64,000 bases of DNA from an uncultured Gammaproteobacteria bacterium. GTDB lineage: Bacteria > Patescibacteriota > Patescibacteriia > Magasanikbacterales > UBA922. Within the stretch, counting starts at the first letter, position 1; each line of letters opens with the position of its first letter. Positions 22,281 to 63,225 of this stretch are shown here, one piece after another. Position numbers and translations under genes: made by a program. Under the pieces are notes generated by a model. That model did no database searches. It was given only the letters and a program-made list of their open reading frames with translations, and was not told the DNA's origin. The stretch spans positions 738,709 through 802,708 of the forward strand of contig OZ246405.1 of the NCBI GenBank assembly GCA_965231005.1. Reading direction: 5' to 3'.

Positions 22281-22295
22281 TAGTATACTATACAA

Positions 22296-22506
22296 CAATT
22301 AACAACTAACAAAAAACAATTAACAACATTTAAAGAAAGAATGTCTTTTAATAAGATAGTTATTAGTTACTAGCTAATAGTTAATAGACGATATAAGAAA
22401 GAAATAAACCTAGTTATCTAATAACTAGTAGCTAATAAATAATACTTCTTTCAAAGAGAGTTATTCTGTACTATTTTGTTAATTGTTAGTTGCTAATTGT
22501 TAATTG
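22296..22506. repeat. MITE-like element, copy 1: ~30-bp terminal inverted repeats (CAATTAACAACTAACAA...TTGTTAGTTGCTAATTGTTAATTG) enclosing nested AT-rich palindromes
   Basis: The arms are reverse complements of each other. Internal palindromes include TTATTAGTTACTAGCTAATAG / CTAGTTATCTAATAACTAGTAGCTAATAA. A shorter copy with the same termini is at 60130..60216. Confidence 0.5.
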
Positions 22507-22514
22507 ATATTTAT

Positions 22515-31606: not shown

Positions 31607-31706
31607 GACTTAATAAATTATTTTACAAACAAAAACAGCCTTGTATAAAGCTGTTTTTGGTTTTGGTCGAATGTTAATTCGACCGAGCCCCTTTGTTTGT
31701 TTTGAG

Positions 31707-31946
31707 TCATTTTTTTCTGTTGTTCTCGCTACTTGTCCTTTTTGGGCGAAGTGCTAGCCAAATCATCAGGAACATGACAAAAGAGGTCCCACCTGCCTGA
31801 ATCCACTGGTTGAGCGGTCGCTCAGGTAGGAAGGCTTCAACAAGATATTCCCAGTATGCACCAACCGCAGCTGCACATATCCCCATGAATGATAGCACCC
31901 AGATTGTGAGTTTTCGTTTCCTTGGTCGCTCTGCTGGTTTATTCAT
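31707..31946 (-). CDS. small membrane protein (79 aa, 2 TM helices)
   Basis: An ORF whose ATG overlaps the stop of an upstream 45-aa ORF (ATGA). It has hydrophobic helices and a basic C-terminus. Confidence 0.45.
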   Translation of the reverse strand: MNKPAERPRKRKLTIWVLSFMGICAAAVGAYWEYLVEAFLPERPLNQWIQAGGTSFVMFLMIWLALRPKRTSSENNRKK

Positions 31947-34241: not shown

Positions 34242-34265
34242 ATCCTCCGGTTGGAGGATTTTTTT
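34242..34265. terminator. bidirectional terminator between hppA and the convergent permease gene
   Basis: ATCCTCC-ggtt-GGAGGAT has an A-run on the 5' side and a T-run on the 3' side. Confidence 0.6.
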
Positions 34266-34385
34266 ATACCCTCGTTTCATCTTAATTACTATTTAAGAAG
34301 AAACGAGGGTAGGCAAGGACTGCACGTACCCAAGCGGTATAGTCTGTGGCTTCCAACCACGACTTTTCCGGTGTTTTGTGTCTTT

Positions 34386-35777
34386 CTACAGGATGTGACT
34401 CAGGATGCTGACGTACGCCATTCCCATGAGCATAAGCACGATGCCGATGCCAAACGCGTGGCGCATCCAGTCGAAGAACGAGATTTTGGTCCCGTGCTTT
34501 CCCATGATCACGACAATGACGATGTTCGAAGCTGTTCCGATGATGGTGTGAACACCACCGGTCAGGCTTGCCCATGCCACTGAGATCTGCTGGAGCAGGT
34601 CGTTCTGTGTGATAGCTTCTTTGCCGAGTTCGAAAACAGCAAGTGCATTGTCTGCAAAAGCGCTAAATCCGTGTGTCGTGGCATACTCAGAAATTGCTCT
34701 GAATGCTCGCTGTGGAGGGAGCATGGTGCCAAAGGCCTGAATGGCCATATAGCACATACCACCCATGAACATAAGCGCAATGAGGAATCCACTGACAAGT
34801 CCACTCTCAATAGCTTCGCCAAACACATGCGTGACTGGATTTTTCTGTCCAGGCTGAGTTTTGCGAACTTCAGGGCGCAGTGCATGAAGAAAGTTGATGG
34901 GGAAGCAGACAGCAAAGACGACGATCATTCCAAGAATGGACTTTTCACCACCAAGCATGTCTGCGAAGACACCAAAGTAGAGAACTCCAGCCCAAAGCAC
35001 CAGATTGACCCAGTCAATGGCCCAAAAGGGTTTTGTCTCAATCTTTGGCGAGTTTTCGCAGTTGTCAGCAGTCTTGTATGCCCACCAGCCAGTAACCAGA
35101 AGACTTGCCAGGACGATCGGTCCGAGGTATCTGAGTGTATCCCAGGTTGTCCAGCCAAACATGCCTGCAGCAATCACAATGCTTGGTGCAGCAAAGTTGG
35201 TCAGACCACCGCCAACCCCGATTCCAACACCATGCAGGACGCCGAGTTTCTTCTTGGTTTCTTCGGTCTGGTTTGCGTTGACTTGTGCAAAGCCGCCTGT
35301 TGATGCGGCAGCAGCAGCTACCTCAGAAATGACTGATGCCAGTCCACCAACGAGGATCATGACCATGGCACTAAACTTTCGTTCATCTCCCCCTGCGAGA
35401 TGCTGGAGGAATGCAACCATGTGATTCACGAAACGCTTGAGCTGCAAAGAGGTGAACATGAGCGTTCCAACCAATATTGCAGCGTGCATGTCGATGTGAT
35501 GGCTTACGCTGTTAATGACTTCTTGAGCTCCGCCGCTTCGGGTGAACGAGACCCACATGAACACGGCACCGATGATGATGAGGACTTCTGTCTTTGTCGC
35601 GACCTCGATGAGGGACATTGCTTTGCCGTTGAGAAAGCCGAGCACATATCCGTTGTTTTTGCCGTTTCCATTGCCTCCGAGTTGGATCAAGCGTCTTGCG
35701 AGACTTTGTCCGACAGCTGCGAGCAACAGAAAAAAGGCCAAAATGCCCAGGTTCTGCCAATCGAGTGGTGACATCAT
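34386..35777 (-). CDS. ArsB/NhaD/CitMHS-superfamily ion permease (putative Na+/H+ antiporter or anion transporter); GC-rich, probably horizontally acquired
   Basis: A ~460-aa polytopic protein with two repeated halves and glycine-rich hairpin-like segments (GVGIGVGGGLTNFAAPSIV). The track start at 35849 is TTG and was trimmed to the ATG at 35777 (MMSPLDWQ). Coding GC is ~52%, against a ~36% background. Confidence 0.6.
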   Translation of the reverse strand: MMSPLDWQNLGILAFFLLLAAVGQSLARRLIQLGGNGNGKNNGYVLGFLNGKAMSLIEVATKTEVLIIIGAVFMWVSFTRSGGAQEVINSVSHHIDMHAAILVGTLMFTSLQLKRFVNHMVAFLQHLAGGDERKFSAMVMILVGGLASVISEVAAAAASTGGFAQVNANQTEETKKKLGVLHGVGIGVGGGLTNFAAPSIVIAAGMFGWTTWDTLRYLGPIVLASLLVTGWWAYKTADNCENSPKIETKPFWAIDWVNLVLWAGVLYFGVFADMLGGEKSILGMIVVFAVCFPINFLHALRPEVRKTQPGQKNPVTHVFGEAIESGLVSGFLIALMFMGGMCYMAIQAFGTMLPPQRAFRAISEYATTHGFSAFADNALAVFELGKEAITQNDLLQQISVAWASLTGGVHTIIGTASNIVIVVIMGKHGTKISFFDWMRHAFGIGIVLMLMGMAYVSILSHIL

Positions 35778-36090
35778 GCCTACCTCCTCTGTTTGGGGTT
35801 TTGCGTTTATCCTATAGAGGAAATCTATAGAGATCAGTGAAAATACCAAACGTTGATAGACTCACTGACCTCTATAGGTTTATCCTTGCCTTGTAATGAA
35901 CAGGTATTCCAAGACAATATGTCCTTGAATACACCTACCGTACAAGAAAGGTACGGCAATGCAAAATGGTAGCATATTTTTTTCTTTCCGTCAATACTGT
36001 TTTTATTTTTTTGGCTTAATATTGACAAATTAGCAATTTATCCGTATAATCTACACTACTTGAACTATTTATTCCTCTAGACATATCCAC

Positions 36091-41087: not shown

Positions 41088-41852
41088 ATGGATACATTTT
41101 TGAAGAAAATTATCAAAGAGGGAGGAATGATAGCAAAGAAATTTTTTGATAAAGGTGTTACTCACACAACCAAGGCGCATCTTGGGGATTTGCTTACAGA
41201 AGCTGATATGGAAGTAAGTAATTATTTAGTTACGCAGATTCATAAAGCATACCCAGACCATCATATTTTTAGTGAAGAAATGGATGAAGAAATTAATCCA
41301 GGAGCGCAATATGAATGGGTAATTGATCCAATCGATGGTACACGGAATTTTGCAATGGGAATTCCAATGTGGTGTGTACTTGTTGCTGTTTTGAAAGATG
41401 GTGAACTACATATGAGTGCTGTGTACAATCCAACTGCAGATGAATTATTTTTTGCAGAAGCTGGAAAAGGTGCTACCATGAATGAAAAAGAAATCCATGT
41501 CAACAATACAGAAACAACAGAACATGGTTTTGGCATTTGTGCACGTAGTTCAACAGATTTTCCTTTTAGAGAAGAGTTTGTTCGCGCGATGAATGAAATC
41601 GTTGATAACACAAACACGTGGGTTCATTCTTTTGGCACAATGCTTGGTGTCTGTTATGTTGCAAACGGTGGTATTGATTTCTTTTTTGCAAATACAGGAT
41701 ATGATTTTGATAATTTAGCTCCTGCACTTATTGCAAGAGAAGCTGGTGCGCTTGTTACAGACTGCGATGGAAATGAATGGAAGCGAGATCGACATGATAT
41801 TGTTATTGCAAATCCAAAACTACATCCGAAACTTATGGAATTTTTTAGATAA
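41088..41852 (+). CDS. inositol monophosphatase family protein
   Basis: IMPase motifs WVIDPIDGTRNF and ...DGE... Confidence 0.85.
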   Translation: MDTFLKKIIKEGGMIAKKFFDKGVTHTTKAHLGDLLTEADMEVSNYLVTQIHKAYPDHHIFSEEMDEEINPGAQYEWVIDPIDGTRNFAMGIPMWCVLVAVLKDGELHMSAVYNPTADELFFAEAGKGATMNEKEIHVNNTETTEHGFGICARSSTDFPFREEFVRAMNEIVDNTNTWVHSFGTMLGVCYVANGGIDFFFANTGYDFDNLAPALIAREAGALVTDCDGNEWKRDRHDIVIANPKLHPKLMEFFR

Positions 41853-41856
41853 ATAT

Positions 41857-44838
41857 ATGAAGACATATCAAGATTTTTTAGACAACAAAGGGGAGCAAGA
41901 ATGGCAGAAAAAGTGGGAAAAGAATGGCACATTCAAAACTCCAGAAAAAGTAACTGCAAAAAATAAATATTATATTTTGCCGCAACTTCCATATCCATCT
42001 GGAAGCGGTCTTCATGTTGGTCATGCAGAAGTATATACTGCGTGCGATATTTATGCGCGGTATCAACGCATGAACAAAAAGAATGTTCTTCAAGTTATTG
42101 GTTGGGACTCTTTTGGTTTGCCTGCAGAAAATTATGCTATTAAAACAAATGTTCATCCGCGCAAAAGTACAAATGATGCAGTAGATAATTTTCGCTCACA
42201 AATAAAAGCACTTGGAATTTCTGTTGACTGGGAAAGAGAAACAGCAAGTCATAGTCCTGAGTATTATAAATGGACGCAGTGGTTTTTCTTGCTCATGTAC
42301 AAACGTGGACTTGCATACAGAAAAATGCAAACAGTAAATTGGTGTGAAAGTTGTAAAACTGTTCTTGCAAATGATCAAGTAAAAGAAGGAAATTGTGAAC
42401 GTTGTGATACTGTTGTTGATCAAAAAGAAATGGAACAATGGTTCTTGAAAACAACACAGTATGCTGACCGTCTTTTAGAAGGGTTAGATGATCTTGACTG
42501 GCCAGAAGAAACAAAAAAACGACAGCGCGATTGGATTGGTCGTTCTGAGGGAGTTAATTTTAAAATGAAAGTAAAAGGATCAGATGTTCATTTTGAAGTA
42601 TATGATTCGGTCCCTCAGACATATACAGCACAAACATTTGTAGTCATTGCGCCAGAACATCCAAAATTACCAGAATTGGTAAGGGGTACAAAGCATGAGA
42701 AAGAAGTGTTGGATTTTGTAGAAAAAGTAAAAAAGAAAAAAAAGGAAGGGAACAAATTTGAGGTTGAGCAGGAAATTGACGGTATATTTACTGGTCTTTA
42801 CATGGATGATCCATATGGCACAGGTGATTTACCTCTCTGGGTTGCATCATTTGCCATTGTAGACTATGGAAGCGGTGTTGTAGGTTGTAGTGTTCATGAT
42901 GAGCGTGATTTTACTTTTGCAAAAAAATTTGATATTCCACTTCGGCCAGTCATGTTTCCAGATGATAAGGCAGAAGCAAAGAAAGTCAAAAATCTTGAGT
43001 ATTGTTATCATCATGATGTTAATGCAGTTTTAGCTTCCCCAAAAGAATTTGAAGGAAGAAAATGGGGTGAAGCACGAGATGAAATAATAGATTTTTTAGT
43101 AGAAAAGGGGATTGCAACACGTGCAGTTCAATACAAACTCCGAGACTGGTCAATTTCTAGACAGCGTTTTTGGGGTGCACCAATTCCAATGTTGTTTAAT
43201 GAAGAAAAGAAGAATAAAAAATATAAATATCTTTGTATTCATGGATTTACAGCAACAAGTCAATCAGTATTTTGGAATTCTGTAAAAAACACACTAGAAG
43301 CACAAGGACATGAAGTATATTGTCCTGATTTACCAAATACTGATGCACCAACCATGAATGAACAAGTAGATTTTATTATAGATAATTTTGATCTTACAGA
43401 CGACACTGTTATCCTTTCTCACAGTCACGGTGCAGGTGTTGCTATGCGACTGCTTGAAAAAACTGAAAAGCATGTTGCAAAGGTTGTATTTATTGATGGG
43501 TTTATTCGTCCAGAATTTAATGACAAAAAAAGACCACTTGTTGAAAAGAGTGGCAAATGGAAATTTGATTTCAAAAAAATTAAAACATTATCCGATGAAT
43601 TTGTTGTTATTGGAGATAATAAATTTCCAGTTATTCCAAAAGACCAGTTAGAAGAAATGGCAGAATTATTCGATGCACAACTTGCATATGTTCATGCAGA
43701 AGATGAACATTTTAAAACAGCAAATGAACCATCACTTCTAGAATATATTTTTGTAGATGGATGGAAAACAGTTCCAGAAGAAGATCTTCCAGTTGAATTG
43801 CCAGATGATGTTGACTTTAAACCAACAGGGGAGTCACCACTCAATTATTCAAAAGATTTTCAAAAAGGAGTTGAAAAGAAATATGGAAAAGGGTGGAAAC
43901 GTGAACCAGATACACTTGATACATTTATGTGTTCAAGTTGGTATTACTTTAGATATCTTGATCCACACAATGATAAGGAATTTGCATCACCAAAACAATT
44001 AAAAACATGGATGCCAGTTGATTTTTATCTTGGTGGTGCAGAACATGTAAATGGACACTTGCTTTATTCACGTTTTTTCACAAAAGTACTTCATGATGCA
44101 GGATATATTGATTTTGATGAACCATTTACAACGCATCGTCATCAAGGAATTATTCTTGGTGCAGATCATAGAAAAATGAGTAAGCGGTGGGGCAATGTGG
44201 TCAATCCAACAGATGTTGTAGATCAGTTTGGTGCAGACACGTGTCGCATGTATGAGATGTTTATGGGGCCGCTTGAAGATGCAAAGCCATGGGACACAAA
44301 TGGGGTAAAAGGGGTAAGACGGTTTTTAGACAAAGTTTGGAAGTTGCAAGAGAAAGTATCAGACAAAGCATCATCAAAACAAATTATAAAAATATTGCAC
44401 CAAACAATTAAAAAAGTTGGTGATGATACCAATGAGTTGAGGTTTAATACTGCGATTGCAAAACTTATGGAACTTGTAAACGCATATAGCAAGGAAGAAA
44501 GCATTGCAACAAGTGAATATAAAGCGTTTTTGATCATGCTTTCTCCATTTGCACCACATATTACAGAAGAACTTTGGAATCGACTTGGAAATACGAAAAG
44601 TATCTCATTTGAAAAATGGCCAACATACGATGAAAAGAAAATTGTTGAAGATACAATAACACTGGCTGTGCAGGTGAATGGAAAAGTACGTGCTACAATG
44701 GAAGTCGCAGCTGATATTTCAGAAAAAGATGCGCAGGCACAGGCACTTGAATTAGAAAATGTTCAGAAATGGTTGGATGGAAAAAAACCAAAAAAAGTTA
44801 TTTATGTAAAAGGGAAGTTAATCTCTATTGTTGTATAA
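41857..44838 (+). CDS. leuS: leucyl-tRNA synthetase carrying an inserted YdeN/RBBP9-type alpha/beta-hydrolase domain
   Basis: HIGH (HVGH), KMSKS (KMSKR), the CP1 editing domain (GSGVVGCSVHDERDFTFA, YKLRDWSISRQRFWGAPIP) and a C-terminal anticodon-binding region. The start was trimmed to the ATG at 41857. A ~180-aa insertion lies at approximately nt 43195-43755. Confidence 0.9.
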   Translation: MKTYQDFLDNKGEQEWQKKWEKNGTFKTPEKVTAKNKYYILPQLPYPSGSGLHVGHAEVYTACDIYARYQRMNKKNVLQVIGWDSFGLPAENYAIKTNVHPRKSTNDAVDNFRSQIKALGISVDWERETASHSPEYYKWTQWFFLLMYKRGLAYRKMQTVNWCESCKTVLANDQVKEGNCERCDTVVDQKEMEQWFLKTTQYADRLLEGLDDLDWPEETKKRQRDWIGRSEGVNFKMKVKGSDVHFEVYDSVPQTYTAQTFVVIAPEHPKLPELVRGTKHEKEVLDFVEKVKKKKKEGNKFEVEQEIDGIFTGLYMDDPYGTGDLPLWVASFAIVDYGSGVVGCSVHDERDFTFAKKFDIPLRPVMFPDDKAEAKKVKNLEYCYHHDVNAVLASPKEFEGRKWGEARDEIIDFLVEKGIATRAVQYKLRDWSISRQRFWGAPIPMLFNEEKKNKKYKYLCIHGFTATSQSVFWNSVKNTLEAQGHEVYCPDLPNTDAPTMNEQVDFIIDNFDLTDDTVILSHSHGAGVAMRLLEKTEKHVAKVVFIDGFIRPEFNDKKRPLVEKSGKWKFDFKKIKTLSDEFVVIGDNKFPVIPKDQLEEMAELFDAQLAYVHAEDEHFKTANEPSLLEYIFVDGWKTVPEEDLPVELPDDVDFKPTGESPLNYSKDFQKGVEKKYGKGWKREPDTLDTFMCSSWYYFRYLDPHNDKEFASPKQLKTWMPVDFYLGGAEHVNGHLLYSRFFTKVLHDAGYIDFDEPFTTHRHQGIILGADHRKMSKRWGNVVNPTDVVDQFGADTCRMYEMFMGPLEDAKPWDTNGVKGVRRFLDKVWKLQEKVSDKASSKQIIKILHQTIKKVGDDTNELRFNTAIAKLMELVNAYSKEESIATSEYKAFLIMLSPFAPHITEELWNRLGNTKSISFEKWPTYDEKKIVEDTITLAVQVNGKVRATMEVAADISEKDAQAQALELENVQKWLDGKKPKKVIYVKGKLISIVV

Positions 44839-56180: not shown

Positions 56181-56609
56181 TTATATTTTTATTACACGAG
56201 TCTTTTCATCAATATGTTCAAGATAAAGATGCTTTGCCTTCCTATTTTTTAGCAAGCTCTGTATCTTATCTGGCCATTCAATAATAGTGAGTGTTTTGCT
56301 ATCTCCTAGGTAGTCTTCAATTCCAATATCAATTAATTCTTGTTCATGTTCTAATCTATATGTATCAATGTGTACCAGTTGTTCTATACTGTTTTTGAAC
56401 TCTGGTAGTGAATACATATTCATTAGAGAAAATGTTGGGCTCGTGATATCATTTGTTATTCCAAGTTCGTTTGCAATGAGTTTTGTGAGTGTTGTTTTGC
56501 CAGCACCAAGATCTCCATGTAGAAGCAGTATATCTCCGCCATGTAATCCACTAACAATATCTTCTGCAATTTTTTTTGTCTCTTCAATTGAGCGTACTGT
56601 ATATTCCAT
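56181..56609 (-). CDS. tsaE: tRNA threonylcarbamoyladenosine biosynthesis ATPase TsaE
   Basis: LHGDLGAGKTTLTKLIANELGI P-loop at ~140 aa. Confidence 0.85.
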   Translation of the reverse strand: MEYTVRSIEETKKIAEDIVSGLHGGDILLLHGDLGAGKTTLTKLIANELGITNDITSPTFSLMNMYSLPEFKNSIEQLVHIDTYRLEHEQELIDIGIEDYLGDSKTLTIIEWPDKIQSLLKNRKAKHLYLEHIDEKTRVIKI

Positions 56610-56610
56610 A

Positions 56611-57885
56611 TTAATTTGGAAGAGGGAAGTCTTTGCAAAGTTCTTTTACTTCTTCATGAATCTTTACAAGTGCTGCATCATTGTCAACGTTTGAAAGCGC
56701 ACTATGGATAAACCCAGCAACAGTCTTCATTTCTTCTTCTTTCATTCCTCTTGTCGTAAGTGCAGGAGTACCCATACGAATTCCAGAAGGATCAAATGGC
56801 TTTCTTGGGTCAAATGGAACTGTATTCTTGTTTACAGTAATTCCAGCTTTTCCAAGTGCTTTTTCACCTTGTTTTCCTGACAGGTTTTTATTGTTTAAAT
56901 CAATAAGAAGAAGATGTGTTTCAGTTCCACCAGTCACAAGGTTGTATCCATGTTGCAAGAGTTCATCTGCCAATACTTTGGCATTTTTTACAATTTGCTG
57001 TGCATATACTTTAAACTCAGGTTGCATTGCTTCCTTCAGAGCAACAGCAATGGCTGCTGTTTGATGGTTATGTGGGCCACCTTGGATTCCAGGGATAATT
57101 GCACGGTCAATCAATGTCGGGATGTTTTCTTTTGAGCGCTCTACCTTTTTGAGTGGAGTAGACGGGTTTCCGTTTGCAAGAATAAGTGCACCACGTGGAC
57201 CGCGAAGTGTTTTGTGAGTTGTTGTAGTAACAACATCTGCAATACCAACTGGATTTGGGTGAACACCGCCCGCAACAAGCCCAGCAACATGTGCCATATC
57301 TGCTAAAAGATATGCACCGACACTGTCTGCAACTTCCTTGTATTTTTCCCATTCATAGATTTGAGGATAGGCACTTCCTCCAGTAATAATTAATTTTGGT
57401 TTATGCTCTTTTGCAAGTTCATACATCTGGTCAACATCAATAAATCCATCTTCTTTTCTACACGTGTACTGGATACTATTGAAAAATGTACCTGAAAAGT
57501 TTAACTTTAATCCATGCGTCATATGTCCACCATGGAATAATTTTAATCCCATGAGTGTGTCTCCCGGATCAAGCAAAGCAAAAAATACTGCAATATTTGC
57601 AGGGCATCCTGAGTGAGCTTGTACATTTGCATGGTCTGCACCAAAGAGTTCTTTTGCTCTATCTCTTGCCAAATTTTCAACATCATCAACATTTTCACAT
57701 CCACCATAGTAGCGAATACCAGGATATCCTTCTGAATATTTATCAGTAAGACGTGATCCTGCTGCTTCCAGTACTGCTTCTGATGTATGGTTTTCAGAAG
57801 GAATCATTTCAAGTCCTTCTGCTTGTCGCAGGGTTTCTTTTTGTATCAGGTTATAAATGTCTGGATCTTTTTCTTGTAAATTCAT
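56611..57885 (-). CDS. glyA: serine hydroxymethyltransferase
   Basis: LEMIPSENHTSEAVLEAAGSRLTDKYSEGYPGIRYYGGCE, with the PLP Lys in TTTTHKTLRGPRG. Confidence 0.95.
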   Translation of the reverse strand: MNLQEKDPDIYNLIQKETLRQAEGLEMIPSENHTSEAVLEAAGSRLTDKYSEGYPGIRYYGGCENVDDVENLARDRAKELFGADHANVQAHSGCPANIAVFFALLDPGDTLMGLKLFHGGHMTHGLKLNFSGTFFNSIQYTCRKEDGFIDVDQMYELAKEHKPKLIITGGSAYPQIYEWEKYKEVADSVGAYLLADMAHVAGLVAGGVHPNPVGIADVVTTTTHKTLRGPRGALILANGNPSTPLKKVERSKENIPTLIDRAIIPGIQGGPHNHQTAAIAVALKEAMQPEFKVYAQQIVKNAKVLADELLQHGYNLVTGGTETHLLLIDLNNKNLSGKQGEKALGKAGITVNKNTVPFDPRKPFDPSGIRMGTPALTTRGMKEEEMKTVAGFIHSALSNVDNDAALVKIHEEVKELCKDFPLPN

Positions 57886-57972
57886 AAAATATTATCTAGT
57901 ATTTATTATCTATCATCTAATAGTTCATCAATTAATTGTGCTCAAGGTATCTGTAAATCATACTTTGAAATT

Positions 57973-58389
57973 TTATATGTTAGATAATGATTTGAGATAG
58001 TCATCAATAACGATTTTAACATTTGGTGCGCAGTCTTCAGGAAGGTTGTGAATGTCAAACCAACCCCATTCTACAACATCATCACCAATTGAAATTTCTC
58101 CGGTTCTTTTTGCTAGAAAATGAATAAGAATGGTATATCTGGTATCATCCTCAACCCGTTTCATCATGAGTGGTCGGAGTGGGCGTAATATTTCAACATC
58201 AATATTTAATTCTTCCTTTGCTTCTCGTATACAAACGTCTTCAAATGTTCCATTAAAATCTTCCATTTTTCCACCAGGAAAGAACCATGGGGTTATACCA
58301 AAATCTTTTTCTTCTTTATCAAGTAAAACCTTACCATCTTCAATGATTACAGGTCCACAGGCAATAATTGTATTTGGGGGAAGAGTCAT
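57973..58389 (-). CDS. NUDIX hydrolase
   Basis: Nudix box GGKMEDFNGTFEDVCIREAKEELNI. Confidence 0.8.
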   Translation of the reverse strand: MTLPPNTIIACGPVIIEDGKVLLDKEEKDFGITPWFFPGGKMEDFNGTFEDVCIREAKEELNIDVEILRPLRPLMMKRVEDDTRYTILIHFLAKRTGEISIGDDVVEWGWFDIHNLPEDCAPNVKIVIDDYLKSLSNI

Positions 58390-58539
58390 ATGTTATAAAA
58401 TTATGATACTAGGATAGCATACCGGGAGGTCGTCATCAAGACGTGGAATCAAACAAAAAACAGGCCTAGTAGACTTGTTTTTTTGGTTGATATTTGTGTT
58501 TATCTCAGAGTATATCTCTTTTTGCAAAAGAAATATGCT

Positions 58540-58578
58540 CCGAGCCCCGACCGAACGTTGTTCAGTCAGGGCCCTCGG
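58540..58578 (-). terminator. conserved 3' hairpin of cassette A (paralog at 59233..59269)
   Basis: CCGAGCCCCGAC...GTCAGGGCCCTCGG imperfect long stem immediately after the stop codon. Confidence 0.45.
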
Positions 58579-58594
58579 TTGAAGATTGAATTCG

Positions 58595-59029
58595 CTACTT
58601 CGCGTCGGGCATGTCGAAGTCGTCGTGTCCGGCGTGGACGTCCTTCATGTGGTAGATCTTGACGATGCATTTGCCACCGCAGTCGAAGGTGTCGCCATTG
58701 CCGACGTAGGAAACGCTGTGTCCGTCCGGGTTGGAGTTGCCCACCTGGAAACCGTGGGCCAGCCCCTTGGTCGTGGTCTTGACGGTGACCTTCGGGCAGC
58801 TGCTGTACGCGGCGACGAACGACGTTCGGCCCTGCGCCTTCTTCTCCAGCTTCTGCACGTTGTACGTACAGTCGCTCTGGAGGAAGACGGCATGGATGTC
58901 GTCGATGTCCATGTAGACGACGCTGGTGGTGGCCTTGCTGGTCTTGTTGTCGGGCTTGTCCTCGTCCGGAAGGATGGCGATGAGGATGGCTGCGAAGATC
59001 ACGAAAATGCCGATAGTTCTGCTATCCAT
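58595..59029 (-). CDS. cassette A: small secreted Cys-containing protein (144 aa, signal peptide, 4 Cys); GC-rich
   Basis: The minus-strand ORF has a signal peptide (MDSRTIGIFVIFAAILIAIL), a Shine-Dalgarno GAGGTG upstream and balanced composition. The overlapping plus-strand ORF is V/G/D/A-rich junk. Confidence 0.6.
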   Translation of the reverse strand: MDSRTIGIFVIFAAILIAILPDEDKPDNKTSKATTSVVYMDIDDIHAVFLQSDCTYNVQKLEKKAQGRTSFVAAYSSCPKVTVKTTTKGLAHGFQVGNSNPDGHSVSYVGNGDTFDCGGKCIVKIYHMKDVHAGHDDFDMPDAK

Positions 59030-59064
59030 GTAGCACCTCGAAAGAACAGACCTTTGCGGCCTGG

Positions 59065-59147
59065 GTAGTTGAATTCAAAAGGAACCGAGGTCAGCGCATG
59101 GCGCCAAGTCCCGGTAGAGGGATCCAGCGCACGATTGCTAACTGAGT
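59065..59147 (-). promoter_or_regulatory. conserved ~85-nt upstream leader module of cassette A (paralogous copy at 59971..60053)
   Basis: The two copies have 2 mismatches over ~85 nt, and each lies 35-45 nt upstream of its ATG. The module contains the GCGC-atg-GCGC hairpin and GAATTC / GGATCC palindromes. Confidence 0.55.
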
Positions 59148-59232
59148 GCAAGACACAGTATGTCTTTTGCTCAACTAACAATTAGCTGTATTTTCTCACG
59201 GTATACTTCCTTTCTTTGAAGGAAACATGCCA

Positions 59233-59269
59233 CGAGCCCCGACTGAACGTTGTCCAGTCGGGGCCTCGG
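59233..59269 (-). terminator. conserved 3' hairpin of cassette B
   Basis: CGAGCCCCGACTG-aacgttgtc-CAGTCGGGGCCTCG, a 13-14-bp stem. Confidence 0.45.
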
Positions 59270-59285
59270 TTAAAGGTTGAATTGA

Positions 59286-59924
59286 CTACCAGCGGCCGTC
59301 GATCTGATACACGCACTCGTCAGTCTCGCACGTGAGGTTCGTCGTGAGCTGAGTAGGTCGGATGCTGATCTCCTTGCCGTTGTGGAGCAGGCGGACGTCG
59401 CCAGGAACACGATCTTTGTCTAGGTTCTTGAACGTGACGCTGTCACAGTTCGGGAACGAAAGAGGTCGGTTGCCCCAGTAACTCCAGACGCTTGCGGAAA
59501 ACTCGCAGACCTTCGAAACGCGGACGGGGTAAGGGCTGTTCCACAGTGCTTCGTCAGAGCTCTTGATGCTGTGAACGACGCAATAGCCGAGGCACGTGTA
59601 CCGGCCTTTCCCGGTTTGGTCCACGTACTTGGCATCCTGTTCCGGAACCTCGGGATGGTAGAGGCTGATCGTGAAGTTCAAGCGAACATCCTGCGCATCC
59701 AGCGTCAGGCTGTCGCATCCCGGGAATCGGGCCGAACGCTCAGCGCCGTAGCGGTGTTGGAATTTGACGATGTCCAGCGTGCACTTGTGGACCTCTGGGT
59801 GGTACGTGAGGACCGGTTCGATCGGCTTCGAGTAATCGAACTTGATCGGTTCCGGCGCCGAATCGTCGCACGCAACGAGGTTGAGGACAAAGATGGACGC
59901 AAGGGACAAAAGGAAAATACGCAT
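59286..59924 (-). CDS. cassette B: secreted lipoprotein-like Cys-rich protein (212 aa, lipobox LVAC, 9 Cys, internally duplicated ~70-aa module)
   Basis: ORF with signal peptide MRIFLLSLASIFVLNLVAC; an SD GGAG upstream; it precedes the same conserved leader as cassette A. Confidence 0.6.
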   Translation of the reverse strand: MRIFLLSLASIFVLNLVACDDSAPEPIKFDYSKPIEPVLTYHPEVHKCTLDIVKFQHRYGAERSARFPGCDSLTLDAQDVRLNFTISLYHPEVPEQDAKYVDQTGKGRYTCLGYCVVHSIKSSDEALWNSPYPVRVSKVCEFSASVWSYWGNRPLSFPNCDSVTFKNLDKDRVPGDVRLLHNGKEISIRPTQLTTNLTCETDECVYQIDGRW

Positions 59925-59970
59925 GATAGCGCTCCAGATTGGGGCGGCCGTTCAAAGGGTGGGGCCGGCT

Positions 59971-60053
59971 GTAGTTGAATTCAAAAGGAACCGAGGTCAG
60001 CGCATGGCGCCAAGTCCCGGTAGGGGGATCCAGCGCACGTTTGCTAACTGAGT
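59971..60053 (-). promoter_or_regulatory. conserved upstream leader module of cassette B (copy of 59065..59147)
   Basis: Near-identical to leader A. Confidence 0.55.
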
Positions 60054-60129
60054 TCAGAAGAAATTCTTCTCTGCTCAATCAACAATTTTTTTGACTCGTT
60101 AAAGCTTTTTCAATTAATGTTTTAAAAAA

Positions 60130-60216
60130 CAATTAACAATTAACAACTAACAAACTTTCTTTCACTATTCTTTGATTCAAAGAGTTGTTATTTGTTTCTT
60201 GTTAATTGTTATTTGT
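60130..60216. repeat. MITE-like element, copy 2 (short form) inside the GC-rich cassette island
   Basis: CAATTAACAATTAACAACTAACAAAC ... TTCAAAGAGTTGTTATTTGTTTCTTGTTAATTGTTATTTGTT shares its termini and the internal TTCAAAGAG core with copy 1. Confidence 0.45.
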
Positions 60217-60266
60217 TCAGCAGTTTCTTTCTCTTCAGTATAGCACTGAAAAGAAGAAAACTGCAC

Positions 60267-60297
60267 GCCCGACGGTTTTGGATATTATCCGTCGGGC
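60267..60297 (-). terminator. conserved 3' hairpin of cassette C (GCCCGACGG-loop-CCGTCGGGC)
   Basis: A 9-bp GC stem with the same stem sequence as in cassette D but an unrelated loop; preceded by the shared (ACT)GCACG motif. Confidence 0.45.
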
Positions 60298-60321
60298 AGC
60301 AGGTTCGGTGTAGGGTGCCGA

Positions 60322-60441
60322 TCAGGCGAACGCGCCGCTGTTGATGAGCGGGCAGATGAGCGTTGCGGCCAACGTGCACGCTGCCAGGAACGTGATGAAG
60401 TTGGAGGAAACGTACTCGGTGGGGAAACAGCTCGGGATCAT
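60322..60441 (-). CDS. cassette C: 39-aa hydrophobic single-TM peptide (MIPSCFPTEYVSSNFITFLAACTLAATLICPLINSGAFA); not in the ORF track
   Basis: Hand translation. Its start context CATGGAAAGCTCC is identical to that of the cassette D gene, and it sits between a conserved 3' hairpin and a conserved ~250-nt leader. Coordinates are approximate to within 3 nt. Confidence 0.4.
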   Translation of the reverse strand: MIPSCFPTEYVSSNFITFLAACTLAATLICPLINSGAFA

Positions 60442-60690
60442 GGAAAGCTCCAATGTGCCGACCCAACATGGGCGGGCGAGGGAAAATGGTCTCGTGGACC
60501 AGGTTGTGGTCGCACGAGTCGACCGGGGAACAAGAGTCTCTAAGAAGAACCTTGTATCCCGGTCGAACTAACCTTGAAGCTGAACCTACACTGTAATGAA
60601 CCTGCGAGTGGATGAATCTGTATCTCAGAAGTTGAGTTATTGATTACTTATCTCACTCGTACATAGATGGCATTTATTCTATATACCAGT
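60442..60690 (-). promoter_or_regulatory. conserved ~250-nt 5' leader of cassette C (paralogous to 61000..61250), with a long imperfect hairpin
   Basis: About 85-90% identical to leader D by eye. It contains TCGACCGGGGAACAAG...CTTGTATCCCGGTCGA stem arms and TATATA at its distal end. Confidence 0.5.
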
Positions 60691-60753
60691 AGATAAGTTT
60701 TGTTTTGAACAGTTCTTCTCTCCTCAATTAAGAAGAGAAGAGAAGGACTGCAC

Positions 60754-60785
60754 GCCCGACGGAAATATGGAAGTTCCCGTCGGGC
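60754..60785 (-). terminator. conserved 3' hairpin of cassette D (GCCCGACGG-loop-CCGTCGGGC)
   Basis: As for cassette C. Confidence 0.45.
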
Positions 60786-60810
60786 AGCAGGTTCGGTCGT
60801 GTAGGAGTTG

Positions 60811-60999
60811 TTACTTGCTGGCGAGCTGGATCGGCGCATCGCTCGTGTCCACGTGGATGTGGACCGTACCGAGATCGATGCCGCGCTCGAGCTTGCTGCG
60901 CGAGCTGTTGATGGACAGCTGGCAAGCGCTCAGGACGCAGACGATGATCGCGGTCACGATGATGCCGAAAACGGTGCTCTTGAAGTTGACAGTACGCAT
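60811..60999 (-). CDS. cassette D: 62-aa small lipoprotein-like or TM peptide (MRTVNFKSTVFGIIVTAIIVCVLSAC...)
   Basis: ORF in the track; N-terminal hydrophobic helix with an LSAC lipobox-like motif; conserved leader upstream and conserved hairpin downstream. Confidence 0.5.
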   Translation of the reverse strand: MRTVNFKSTVFGIIVTAIIVCVLSACQLSINSSRSKLERGIDLGTVHIHVDTSDAPIQLASK

Positions 61000-61250
61000 G
61001 GAAAGCTCCAGAAGTGCCGACCCAACGTGGGCGGGCGAAAAGGCGGTCTCGTGGACCAGGTTGTGGTCGCACGAGTCGACCGGGGAACAAGAGTCTCTGT
61101 TAAGATCCTTGTACCCTGGTCGAAAAACCTTTGGAGTTTCTGTACCTACACTGTAATGAACCTGTGAGGAGATGAATCTGTATCTCAGTAATGAGATGTG
61201 GACTACTTATCTCACTCATACATAGATGGCATTGATTTCTATATATAAGG
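61000..61250 (-). promoter_or_regulatory. conserved ~250-nt 5' leader of cassette D
   Basis: Same organisation as leader C. Its stem arms TCGACCGGGGAACAAG...CTTGTACCCTGGTCGA carry compensatory differences relative to copy C. Confidence 0.5.
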
Positions 61251-61530
61251 GGACAAGCTTTTGAAGAGGAATAACTGTGGGTTTTTGTGTCTATATATGT
61301 TATAGATTTTTAAACTCTTTGTTATTTTTGAACAGCATAGTATAACACAAAAAAAGGATCTTGTCAAGCCCCTTGCGAAATAATTTGGCTTAAATAAGGT
61401 AATAAATAAAAAAATGGCTTTGTTAAGCCAAGTGAAATTTTACTAAATAAAGGTATAAGATTGCCGCGGTCCCTTTCGACTTAGGCAGGCTCAGGGTCCC
61501 TCGCAATGACAGTAAAGTCAAATTTGTTTT

Positions 61531-63225
61531 TTAAGCCTTTTTGCCTTTTAGCTTTTTAAGCCTTTTAATCATATATGTTCCAATCTTTCTATATCCTAAT
61601 TTTCTATAATATCCACGTACTCCAACACCAGAAATAACAGCAATTTTATTACCTTTTTTTGCTTTTACAAGGTTTTCAGCTTCCTTCATAAGCCTTTTTC
61701 CTACCCCTTTATGCTGAGAAGCTAGTTCATTTCTTTTTCCAATTGAAACAAGCGTTCCATATACATGAAGTTCTCTGACAAAAGCAGCTTTTTTGATTTC
61801 AGGTATGAGTTTAATTAGATCCTTGTTTTGATCAGAAGAGGGTATTCGTAGGCGTAAGAATCCGTAAACAGCTATTCTTTCTTTATCTTCTAGACTTAAG
61901 AAATATTCTGTCCCACCAATTGTCTCATATTCATCAATAAATAACTGTGGTTCTTCATTGGCATCCATAATATCTTTTTGACGTCCAATTTCTCTACAAC
62001 GAAGACAAACACATTTTTTGCCTTGTTCTTTTAGTTCTTTTGACAAATCTTCTCGAAGGTTTGTAATAGTATTTCCAGCATAGATTTCATTTGAAGGAAT
62101 ATCTCTGATCAATCTAGAAATTCTGCAATAACGTGGTGTAGCAAGTTTCATTGCAAGAAGTGCACGAAACAATCCTTCATCACCATATGGCTTGTATCGA
62201 CCATCTTTCCACCACTGATATAATTCTGCAGATTTAATAACAGTATTTGGATAAATTTTAATCATATCAGGACAAAGTCCAGGATCAGAAAAAATTGTTT
62301 TGTACATTTCAATATCATGTTCAGGAGAACTTCCTGGAAGATCTGGCATGAAATGAAGGTCAACCTTAAATCCAGCACTGCGCAAAAGTAGCATTGCATC
62401 TCGAAATTGCTGTACAGTGTGTCCTCGTTGAATCAATTCAAGGATGTTGTCATCTGGAGCTTGTAGTCCAAGTTCAATTCTTGTGCACCCTTGTTTTCTC
62501 ATGTGCTGAATTGTTTTTGGAGTTATTGCGTCCGGGCGAGTTTCAAGAGTTATACCAATAATTCTATATCCTGCTGTTTCATTGTATGTTTGTTCTTGTT
62601 CAAGTTCCTTTTGAATTTGTTCAAGAGTCTTTTTGGCACACTCTTCTTCAGTCTGTTCTGGAACCTCTTTTCTTCTTGTTAAATTATTGCAGGCTTTAAA
62701 TGATTCCAAGAGAAACCAATATTGATATTTAATAGGGTAAGCATTCCATGTTCCACCTTTAATGATATATTCAATCTTGTCAGCATTGTGGCCATTGCGT
62801 TCAAGCATTTGAATACGACGCTGCATTTGCGTGTAAGGCGAAAAATTGAGGCGTAAGGCTCTTGCAGCTGCTGGTTCGCTTGCAATATAGCTTTTTGGCA
62901 TTCGAACCTCTGTAGGGCAATATACGCATTTTCCAGGACAGGCATATGGCTTGACCAAGGATGTGATAATAGATACCCCAGAAAGACTTCGAATACTTGC
63001 CTTGAGCATGAATGATTCAAAGAGTTTGCTTTTAGGCACTCTTTTCTTTTTTACTAAATTTTGATAGGCTGATATAAGTTCTCTGTTTGCAGGCTTACTG
63101 ATTTTAAGAGAACCACAAACTTTTTGTGCTGCATCATTAAACTCATCCCTTGTTTTAGGATGAAGATCAACGATGCCCAGGACAATCGTTTCAAGTAATT
63201 TGTTATCAAGTTTGTTTGTAAACAT
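61531..63225 (-). CDS. elp3: Elp3-family tRNA uridine(34) carboxymethyl/acetyl-transferase (radical SAM + GNAT)
   Basis: The radical SAM CxxxCxxC (CPGKCVYCP), an Elp3-type N-terminus and a C-terminal GNAT acetyltransferase region at 564 aa. Confidence 0.85.
   Translation of the reverse strand: MFTNKLDNKLLETIVLGIVDLHPKTRDEFNDAAQKVCGSLKISKPANRELISAYQNLVKKKRVPKSKLFESFMLKASIRSLSGVSIITSLVKPYACPGKCVYCPTEVRMPKSYIASEPAAARALRLNFSPYTQMQRRIQMLERNGHNADKIEYIIKGGTWNAYPIKYQYWFLLESFKACNNLTRRKEVPEQTEEECAKKTLEQIQKELEQEQTYNETAGYRIIGITLETRPDAITPKTIQHMRKQGCTRIELGLQAPDDNILELIQRGHTVQQFRDAMLLLRSAGFKVDLHFMPDLPGSSPEHDIEMYKTIFSDPGLCPDMIKIYPNTVIKSAELYQWWKDGRYKPYGDEGLFRALLAMKLATPRYCRISRLIRDIPSNEIYAGNTITNLREDLSKELKEQGKKCVCLRCREIGRQKDIMDANEEPQLFIDEYETIGGTEYFLSLEDKERIAVYGFLRLRIPSSDQNKDLIKLIPEIKKAAFVRELHVYGTLVSIGKRNELASQHKGVGKRLMKEAENLVKAKKGNKIAVISGVGVRGYYRKLGYRKIGTYMIKRLKKLKGKKA

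Follow-up and report, generated by a model that had tools for sequence, protein, structure and literature searches.

Why should two genes that are unrelated in sequence carry nearly identical flanks? The question is raised by a window of 64,000 nt from contig OZ246405.1 (ENA project PRJEB17505), the whole stretch of DNA that was analyzed here and to which positions refer unless a relative is named. The host is an AT-rich bacterium of the candidate phyla radiation (CPR), with ~36% GC as judged from the base composition of the window, and its housekeeping genes and Elp3 homologs indicate that within the CPR it is close to the Magasanikbacteria. Between the Elp3 gene and a NUDIX-SHMT-TsaE block lies an island of ~3 kb with 52–58% GC, the minus strand of which holds four small orphan lipoprotein-like open reading frames (ORFs), namely D, C, B, and A. 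An earlier note on this DNA had singled out a block of ~85 nt upstream of A and B, together with a nearby hairpin, as a shared promoter, operator, or leader RNA element. The explanation we favor, tentatively and with somewhat less than even confidence, is that this block forms the GC-rich core of a transcribed module of ~118 nt in the 5′ untranslated region (UTR), which together with a 3′ UTR module of ~95 nt would bracket unrelated orphan payloads and control mRNA processing or stability, the repeats allowing payloads to be swapped.

Two copies of the block are indeed present. Each is 86 nt long (59065–59150 and 59971–60056) and they are 97% identical, with 2 mismatches; each stands upstream of a minus-strand ORF, A or B, and the sequences of these ORFs are unrelated to each other. 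A 37-nt core of the block has two exact matches where none are expected. When the two upstream regions are aligned, conservation spans ~118 nt, from AATTGTT to CAACTAC, and ends sharply; the 35–48 nt preceding each ATG, including the Shine-Dalgarno sequence, are unrelated between the A and B copies. Distal to the block, a hairpin of different sequence had been described for each copy, followed by two related sequences, GCTCAACTAACAATT and GCTCAATCAACAATT. Both hairpins exist, that of A being AAGACA-cagta-TGTCTT, but the “att” loop assigned to B does not, since the arms AGAAGAA/TTCTTCT lie 1 nt apart, so that the effective apical hairpin of B consists of 6 bp and a 3-nt loop. Moreover, GCTCAACTAACAATT and GCTCAATCAACAATT do not constitute a separate motif but supply the 5′ arm of a basal stem of 12 bp, the 3′ arm of which is formed by the last 13 nt of the block, TTGCTAACTGAGT. 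What had been listed as a hairpin and a related sequence is one stem-loop, hp3, built from the 12-bp basal stem, a 3 × 3 internal loop, and a variable apical hairpin. Because each hp3 basal stem contains three G·U pairs, it matches only ~70% when treated as a DNA palindrome. Within the block lie a second hairpin, hp4, and a 26-nt box, which in its RNA form reads CCUCGGUU-N4-UUGAAUU-N3-CUAC.

The 3′ flanks of A and B had been said to share a second palindrome, and this was recovered as a GC-rich hairpin, hp1. It is followed by an AT-rich hairpin, hp2, which covaries between the copies; both hp1 and hp2 are without U-tracts. The TTGAATT motifs seen in both flanks proved to belong to a 26-nt composite box, CCTCGGTT-N4-5-TTGAATT-N2-3-CTAC, which occurs four times where no occurrence is expected; every occurrence marks a payload boundary, and the orientation alternates from one to the next. 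In both A and B, the TAG stop codon is the exact point at which an inverted copy of the 5′ box starts, and the 226-nt stretch between the B and A ORFs has such 26-nt imperfect inverted boxes as its ends. The 5′ module can also be aligned with the reverse complement of the 3′ module, over ~77 nt (P = 0.02 and 0.08). Other parts of the earlier description fared less well. The restriction-site-like palindromes GAATTC, GGCGCC, and GGATCC number 3 versus 1.2 expected (P = 0.12), which is not significant. A role as promoter or operator found no specific support either: upstream of B there is a weak match to a σ70-like promoter (9 of 12 positions), the predicted start site of which would cut the hp3 stem, and upstream of A there is none.

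Of the readings offered in the earlier note, a leader RNA element has the strongest support, as the stems keep their pairing and the wobbles all fall on the sense strand. Between the A and B copies, hp3 shows 3 compensatory and 2 wobble changes, and hp1 and hp2 together show 3 compensatory and 6 wobble changes, with 0 broken pairs in either set. In total, this amounts to 6 compensatory changes and 8 switches between Watson–Crick and G·U pairs, and this retention of pairing in all stem substitutions argues for a transcribed RNA element. Of the one-sided changes, 8 out of 8 give G·U on the minus (sense) strand and none gives A·C, which has a probability of ~0.004 if the two outcomes are equally likely. 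For the region from the stop codon of B to the start codon of A, the folding energy is −100 kcal/mol (z = −5.9), and in this fold hp1 to hp4 are enclosed by a junction that the two boxes close; the minus strand of the region folds 10 kcal/mol better than its plus strand. When whole mRNAs of A and B were modeled, the minimum-energy folds of both contained a long-range helix between the boxes, of 8 + 7 + 5 bp.

Cassettes C and D, which occupy the other half of the island, have a leader and a 3′ module different from those of A and B, yet the order of box, GC hairpin, and AT-rich hairpin is kept. The region from the stop codon of D to the start codon of C has a predicted folding energy of −162 kcal/mol with z = −14.3, values well beyond those of the A/B region, and several hairpins lie within a closing stem, CCUACAC/GUGUAGG plus GAACCUGC/GCAGGUUC. 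A covariance model of the A/B 3′ module yielded weak matches on the C and D flanks; since it also matched an unrelated AT-rich double hairpin at 31617–31715, these matches are not proof of homology. Also in the C/D leader, a U-run comes after the terminator-like stem UGGUC-CACGA-GACCA (60501–60487), for which an alternative CUCGUG/CACGAG pairing can be drawn; judged by its sequence, this arrangement looks like an attenuator.

These observations can be assembled into a model. In the sense direction, a cassette reads hp3, hp4, box, payload with its own Shine-Dalgarno sequence and ORF, inverted box beginning at the TAG stop codon, hp1, and hp2. The four hairpins would protect or mark the ends of the mRNA. 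The two boxes may pair with each other, in which case the 5′ and 3′ ends of a monocistronic RNA would be clamped as a panhandle, whereas in a read-through RNA the boxes would close a multi-branch junction between the cistrons. The box helix could then act as a double-stranded determinant of processing or stability, of the RNase III-site or end-protection type, and so set the output of the payload; the clamp or the intercistronic junction is proposed to govern how the RNA is processed, how stable it is, or how it is translated. The repeated modules would also act as DNA, by providing homology for payload swapping, in a host that carries a ComEC-like competence gene. Such swapping would explain both the identical flanks of unrelated ORFs and the variable gene content found downstream of elp3 in relatives. 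In rRNA operon stems, intercistronic RNase III sites of phage T7, and the fold-back of hok mRNA, complementary sequences on both sides of a functional segment pair over a long distance, and the resulting helix controls processing, stability, or translation. With these systems the island shares no homology, and its pairing, known here from sequence only, is at chance level on energy alone.

Several results weigh against the model. The duplex energy between leader and trailer of cassettes A–D, compared with that for shuffled trailers, is at the chance level for such GC-rich RNA, and the longest exact complement between leader and trailer in these cassettes is 8 nt (P ~0.13). Because these two tests are at chance, the pairing of the boxes in the cell is deduced from their sequence, position, and recurrence rather than from energy. 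Over the whole island, G·U totals are similar on both strands. As there are only two copies, the 86-nt core shows no covariation, and its 97% identity could stem from recent duplication or gene conversion instead of constraint. The promoters for A and B are uncertain. Finally, further copies of the A/B module were found in none of the collections searched.

The earlier note had proposed looking for such copies in genomes and metagenomes; the searches returned none, and what recurs in relatives is the architecture, not the sequence. Within the 64-kb window and the adjacent 9 kb, module copies are confined to the island, and a covariance model of the 5′ module, run over the window and nine further loci, returned only the known copies. 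A degenerate box pattern had 7 single matches in 185,579 species-representative genomes, all attributable to chance; one of them lies inside an M23 peptidase gene of a Saccharibacterium. A 20-mer from the core had 3 chance matches in JGI metagenomes, within high-GC sequence that was otherwise unlike the island. In viral contigs, neither the 25-nt and 29-nt cores nor the patterns of the box, hp1, the C/D modules, and the L018 island (described below) had a further copy. A blastn search with the island gave zero matches among plasmids and, among 50,697 phage records, only a 37-nt promoter look-alike in Enterococcus phages. With Rfam at gathering thresholds, the whole window yielded only 2 tRNAs; at E ≤ 10, the island yielded only noise matches far below threshold. 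Since there is nothing beyond the known copies, the module is not a widespread family at the sequence level, and the A/B module fits no known family. We also found no description of such islands in the literature.

Among known systems, the PeSL cassettes of T4-type phages come closest in behavior. There, conserved modules that join a strong σ70-like promoter to a terminator stem-loop lie between small, non-essential ORFs without homologs in a hypervariable region; the modules recombine with one another, by which the ORFs are shuffled and circles can be released (PMC2839356, PMC4122927). Shuffling of this kind between modules would explain the identical flanks around unrelated genes in the island. 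The island is nevertheless not a member of this family: it sits on a bacterial CPR chromosome in a housekeeping context and not in a phage, and its modules are much longer (~118 + ~95 nt), with four hairpins and an inverted box at both payload edges. Stem-loops are found between all of the island ORFs, but a strong promoter is present only at the head (compare the 9/12 match for B and the lack of one for A), and the hairpins are without U-tracts. Similarity to the phage records is confined to the 37-nt promoter match mentioned above.

The most serious alternative, although we consider it unlikely, is that the boxes and hairpins are DNA recombination sites, at which a recombinase encoded elsewhere inverts or excises segments, as in an inverton or shufflon, or captures cassettes via folded single strands in the manner of integron attC sites. 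The four 26-nt boxes of alternating orientation located exactly at payload edges, the ~77-nt inverted similarity of the 5′ and 3′ modules, the identical flanks at unrelated ORFs, and the variability of the locus among relatives are all in keeping with such sites. Moreover, the box is bipartite, with 7 nt, a non-complementary spacer of 4–5 nt, and 8 nt, which recalls the R-box, spacer, and L-box of attC, and ORFs A and B both end inside a box. An attC site is a single imperfect hairpin of ~57–141 nt that lies 3′ of its ORF, with R″ (RYYYAAC) at its 5′ end and R′ (GTTRRRY) at its 3′ end, and ~6 nt of it are found at the start of the next cassette; the array adjoins an IntI tyrosine recombinase, unless it is a cluster of attC sites lacking an integrase (CALIN). 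Like integron cassettes, the promoter-distal ORFs of the island share one orientation, ORFs end inside an imperfect palindrome, and the content of neighboring cassettes is unrelated; the 7-nt, ~5-nt unpaired, and 8-nt geometry of the box is also attC-like.

The attC comparison was nonetheless rejected. An R″ that fits, ATTCAAC, is found in the 3′ box of B, whereas that of A has ATTCAAT, and R′ reads TTTGAAT in both 5′ boxes instead of GTTRRRY. The full site would be 226 nt long and multi-branched, with four internal hairpins, and its conserved 118-nt half travels with the downstream ORF; in B, this 5′ half follows a 3′ module of the C type. No integrase is encoded within the window or the adjacent 9 kb. 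More generally, no recombinase, transposase, or reverse transcriptase was found among 36 ORFs of the window scanned with Pfam or among the genes called beyond its end, and tblastn of the window with an integrase from a relative gave zero matches. A diversity-generating retroelement or a retron was rejected as well, there being no reverse transcriptase and no pair of template and variable repeats. As in an invertible segment or shufflon, inverted repeats flank a segment, but the assembled contigs of two sequencing runs show a single arrangement, and the window contains no invertase. Conservation that reaches well beyond the boxes and one-sided stem changes that are strand-specific also speak against recombination sites.

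The three remaining alternatives are less likely. According to the first, which we regard as improbable, the 5′ module would regulate in cis as a leader, be it a riboswitch, attenuator, or protein-binding RNA, that senses a signal and switches both genes together, and the 3′ similarity would reflect incidental terminators. The core is 97% conserved versus ~80–88% for the apical hairpin and 3′ module, which suggests sequence-specific recognition, and the 5′ module contains two stable hairpins. The terminator-like hairpin with a U-rich tail before the Shine-Dalgarno sequence of A (59063–59047) points the same way, as do the terminator-like stem and alternative pairing in the C/D leader. On the other hand, there is no Rfam match even at E ≤ 10, and the sequence between module and start codon, where the expression platform would be expected, differs between A and B. 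Two copies offer no test for an aptamer, and the inverted box at the stop codons is left unexplained. The hairpin in the payload-specific part of the A 5′ UTR reads CAGGCC-GCAAA-GGUCUG, is followed by UUCUUUCGAGG, and overlaps the Shine-Dalgarno region (59047–59063, minus strand). In addition, CCUCGG of the 5′ box could pair alternatively with the UCGAGG Shine-Dalgarno sequence of A.

A further possibility, which we think very unlikely, is that the 226-nt B–A stretch is a repeat resembling a miniature inverted-repeat transposable element (MITE) or a repetitive extragenic palindrome, with the outer copies as truncated halves and RNA effects as secondary. Correia (CREE) and ERIC elements of proteobacteria are intergenic MITEs of 100–250 nt whose terminal inverted repeats measure ~26 nt; they fold stably, are co-transcribed with neighboring genes, can be substrates of RNase III, can carry promoters, and occur in tens to hundreds of dispersed copies with target-site duplications. 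The 226-nt stretch resembles them in its 26-nt terminal inverted repeats and in the extended inverted similarity between its halves, and it is likewise strongly folded, intergenic, and probably co-transcribed. In contrast to such elements, its copies are confined to one island, where they occur as halves attached to payloads; dispersed copies are absent from the 64 kb, the adjacent 9 kb, and the public collections searched, and neither the ends nor a target site are duplicated. The supposed half copies are exact complementary halves, each on an ORF and in the correct orientation, so that payloads flanked by modules fit better than three insertions and two truncations. Equally doubtful is the view that the flanks have no dedicated function, being relics of a segmental duplication or gene conversion that recently involved two horizontally acquired genes, with ordinary terminators as hairpins. 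There are just two copies with a near-identical core, and conservation of the sequence was seen nowhere else, but the copies diverge very unevenly, the apical hairpin has been replaced in full and yet pairs, the 14 stem changes all keep pairing, hp1 and hp2 do not have U-tracts, and the same build is found with unrelated sequence in C/D and in relatives.

At the elp3 site of related genomes, the architecture and the hot spot are conserved and the sequences are not. In relatives with 71–73% Elp3 identity, synteny is kept as Elp3, a variable segment, and NUDIX-SHMT-TsaE, and the gene content of the segment varies. One locus, L018, has an island of 60–72% GC with two Cys-rich ORFs, one bearing a lipobox and one a predicted membrane segment; the cassettes have a GC content at third codon positions (GC3) of 0.88–0.89 versus 0.43 in the host, and they share 3′ modules, two hairpins being enclosed by a closing stem, CUGUUGGAUU/AAUCCAACAG (z = −5.7). 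The loci L019/L020/L025, L021/L022, and L023 have one or two tiny Zn-ribbon-like ORFs, each after a consensus promoter. In L019, L022, and L023, a leader CCUCCCAGG... is complementary to a trailer ...CCUGGGAGG over 11–13 bp, and this helix contains one covarying base pair, which is A-U in two of the lineages but U-A in the remaining one. At the elp3 site, one GC-richer gene is present in L024 and none in L026 and L027. In every case, irrespective of host GC, GC3 of the cassettes exceeds that of the host by 0.17–0.45, which may reflect a recombination-linked GC bias as opposed to a single foreign donor.

The loci L019 (10140–10330), L022 (2570–2750), and L023 (9760–9925) also have in common a conserved structured leader of ~150 nt, UGCAAUCGAGACGUUGCGGACG...CCUACAACAUCCCAAGUGCC..., which precedes small CxxC Zn-ribbon-like ORFs in the three lineages. 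It had zero Rfam matches and is, judging by its sequence, a candidate for a new cis-regulatory RNA.

A broader proposal, to which we give little credence, is that the clade keeps an integrase-independent cassette platform downstream of elp3, in which unrelated GC-rich orphan genes for lipoproteins or small Cys-rich proteins sit in interchangeable structured 5′ and 3′ modules, with inverted boxes on either side of the payload, that act both as RNA elements of processing or stability and as recombination handles for moving payloads between cassettes and genomes. Were this so, the raised GC3 of the payloads could be a by-product of frequent recombination through GC-biased gene conversion. Phage morons and the minimal mobile elements of naturally competent bacteria are likewise small, self-contained transcription units of deviant base composition between conserved genes, with differing cassettes at one locus across lineages, but they are not defined by conserved structured flanks or inverted boxes.

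The payloads themselves have a GC3 of 0.76–0.89 (ORFs A–D), compared with 0.23 in the flanking host genes. Public gene calls in the island (58586–61167; loci L001 and L015) are all on the plus strand, with 129, 135, and 147 aa. These ORFs were rejected as true genes and are regarded as artefacts because their pattern is the mirror image of the GC3 signal, with the GC peak at codon position 1; the antisense “proteins” of these calls are singletons. ORFs A–D are probably missing from protein databases because gene callers took the opposite strand. A word-index search found zero homologs of ORFs A and B, as did tblastn against phages; for ORF B, a full HMMER scan of 1.84 billion representative proteins returned zero homologs and a search of viral loci was negative. 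A homology search of the payloads with Pfam was also negative, and an AlphaFold model of ORF B from its single sequence had a predicted local distance difference test score (pLDDT) of 48.8, which does not suffice for a fold search. An assembly chimera was rejected, because across the junctions of the island the window is matched without a difference by independent contigs of ENA and Logan, derived from two runs and all with the single arrangement.

The island genes look real yet are absent from protein databases, probably because the opposite strand was called. CPR bacteria are believed to be attached to host cells in life, and little is understood of how they vary their surfaces. If the modules are portable units of expression and exchange, conserved regulatory flanks around shuffled genes without homologs, they would explain how surface proteins without homologs are acquired, expressed, and reshuffled, and small genomes could be searched for them as structured RNA or recombination elements of a new type. 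If they are mere remnants of duplication, they are a local curiosity. The positions of all features are collected in Table 1.

Table 1. Positions of the island features, the flanking genes, and the GC-enriched cassettes of relatives (the latter in coordinates of the respective loci)
Feature	Position	Strand	Description
NUDIX-SHMT-TsaE block	56181–58389	minus	
3′ module of cassette A	58505–58598	minus	3′ box 58573–58598 including TAG stop; hp1 58544–58572; hp2 58505–58543
ORF A	58595–59029	minus	144 aa; N-terminal signal or anchor; 4 Cys; GC3 0.89; GAGG Shine-Dalgarno
5′ module of cassette A	59065–59181	minus	hp3 59135–59181; hp4 59095–59133; 26-nt 5′ box CCUCGGUUCCUUUUGAAUUCAACUAC 59065–59090
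3′ module of cassette B	59196–59289	minus	3′ box 59264–59289 including TAG stop; GC hairpin hp1 59236–59264; AT-rich hp2 59196–59235
ORF B	59286–59924	minus	212 aa; lipobox LVAC; two Cys-containing repeats; GC3 0.76; GGAG Shine-Dalgarno
5′ module of cassette B	59971–60085	minus	hp3 60041–60085; hp4 60001–60039; 26-nt 5′ box 59971–59996
Box starts and orientations	58573 (+), 59065 (−), 59264 (+), 59971 (−)		
AT-rich inverted repeat of AACAATTAACAA heptad repeats	60123–60217	none	spacer between cassettes C and B
3′ module of cassette C	60210–60321	minus	box, GC hairpin, AT-rich hairpin
Cassette C	60322–60685	minus	leader 60442–60685, ~86% identical to that of D, plus 39-aa ORF
ORF C	60322–60441	minus	39 aa; FLAAC; GC3 0.88
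3′ module of cassette D	60699–60810	minus	equivalent of that of C
Cassette D	60811–61245	minus	~245-nt structured leader 61000–61245 plus 62-aa lipoprotein-like ORF
ORF D	60811–60999	minus	62 aa; lipobox LSAC; GC3 0.87
Near-consensus σ70-type promoter	61339–61367	minus	TTGACA-17-TATACT plus extended TG; head of island
Elp3 gene	61531–63225	minus	
GC-enriched cassette, L018	12700–14250		
GC-enriched cassette, L019	9710–10600		
GC-enriched cassette, L022	2077–3160		
GC-enriched cassette, L023	9704–10200		
GC-enriched cassette, L024	8100–9100		

The promoter at the head of the island matches the consensus in 11 of 12 positions and lies upstream of D only. Directly downstream of elp3 is a GC-rich imperfect hairpin, cattgcgagggaccc...gggaccgcggcaat (61470–61525, minus strand), followed by a canonical terminator and then by this strong promoter. 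Besides the spacer between cassettes C and B, a second large AT-rich inverted repeat of AACAATTAACAA heptads occupies a host intergenic region at 22289–22513; AACAATTAACAA has 15 matches versus 1.8 expected, and the 5′ arm of hp3 is a member of the same motif family.

Elsewhere in the window, a gene of 50% GC (34250–36010, minus strand) encodes a 487-aa transporter with a weak Na+/H+ antiporter-like Pfam match. It has a structured leader of ~190 nt and a 9-bp complement between leader and trailer, and it shares exact motifs of 10–12 nt with the C/D flanks: its leader contains GTTCATTACA, and its trailer contains CGTGCAGTCCTT ahead of an AT-rich hairpin. The gene may be a larger cassette of the same class, but the flanks are only weakly similar overall. 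Lastly, the leucyl-tRNA synthetase ORF (41731–44838, plus strand; 1035 aa) contains a match to an α/β-hydrolase domain at residues 501–617, which sits between the editing and anticodon-binding domains.

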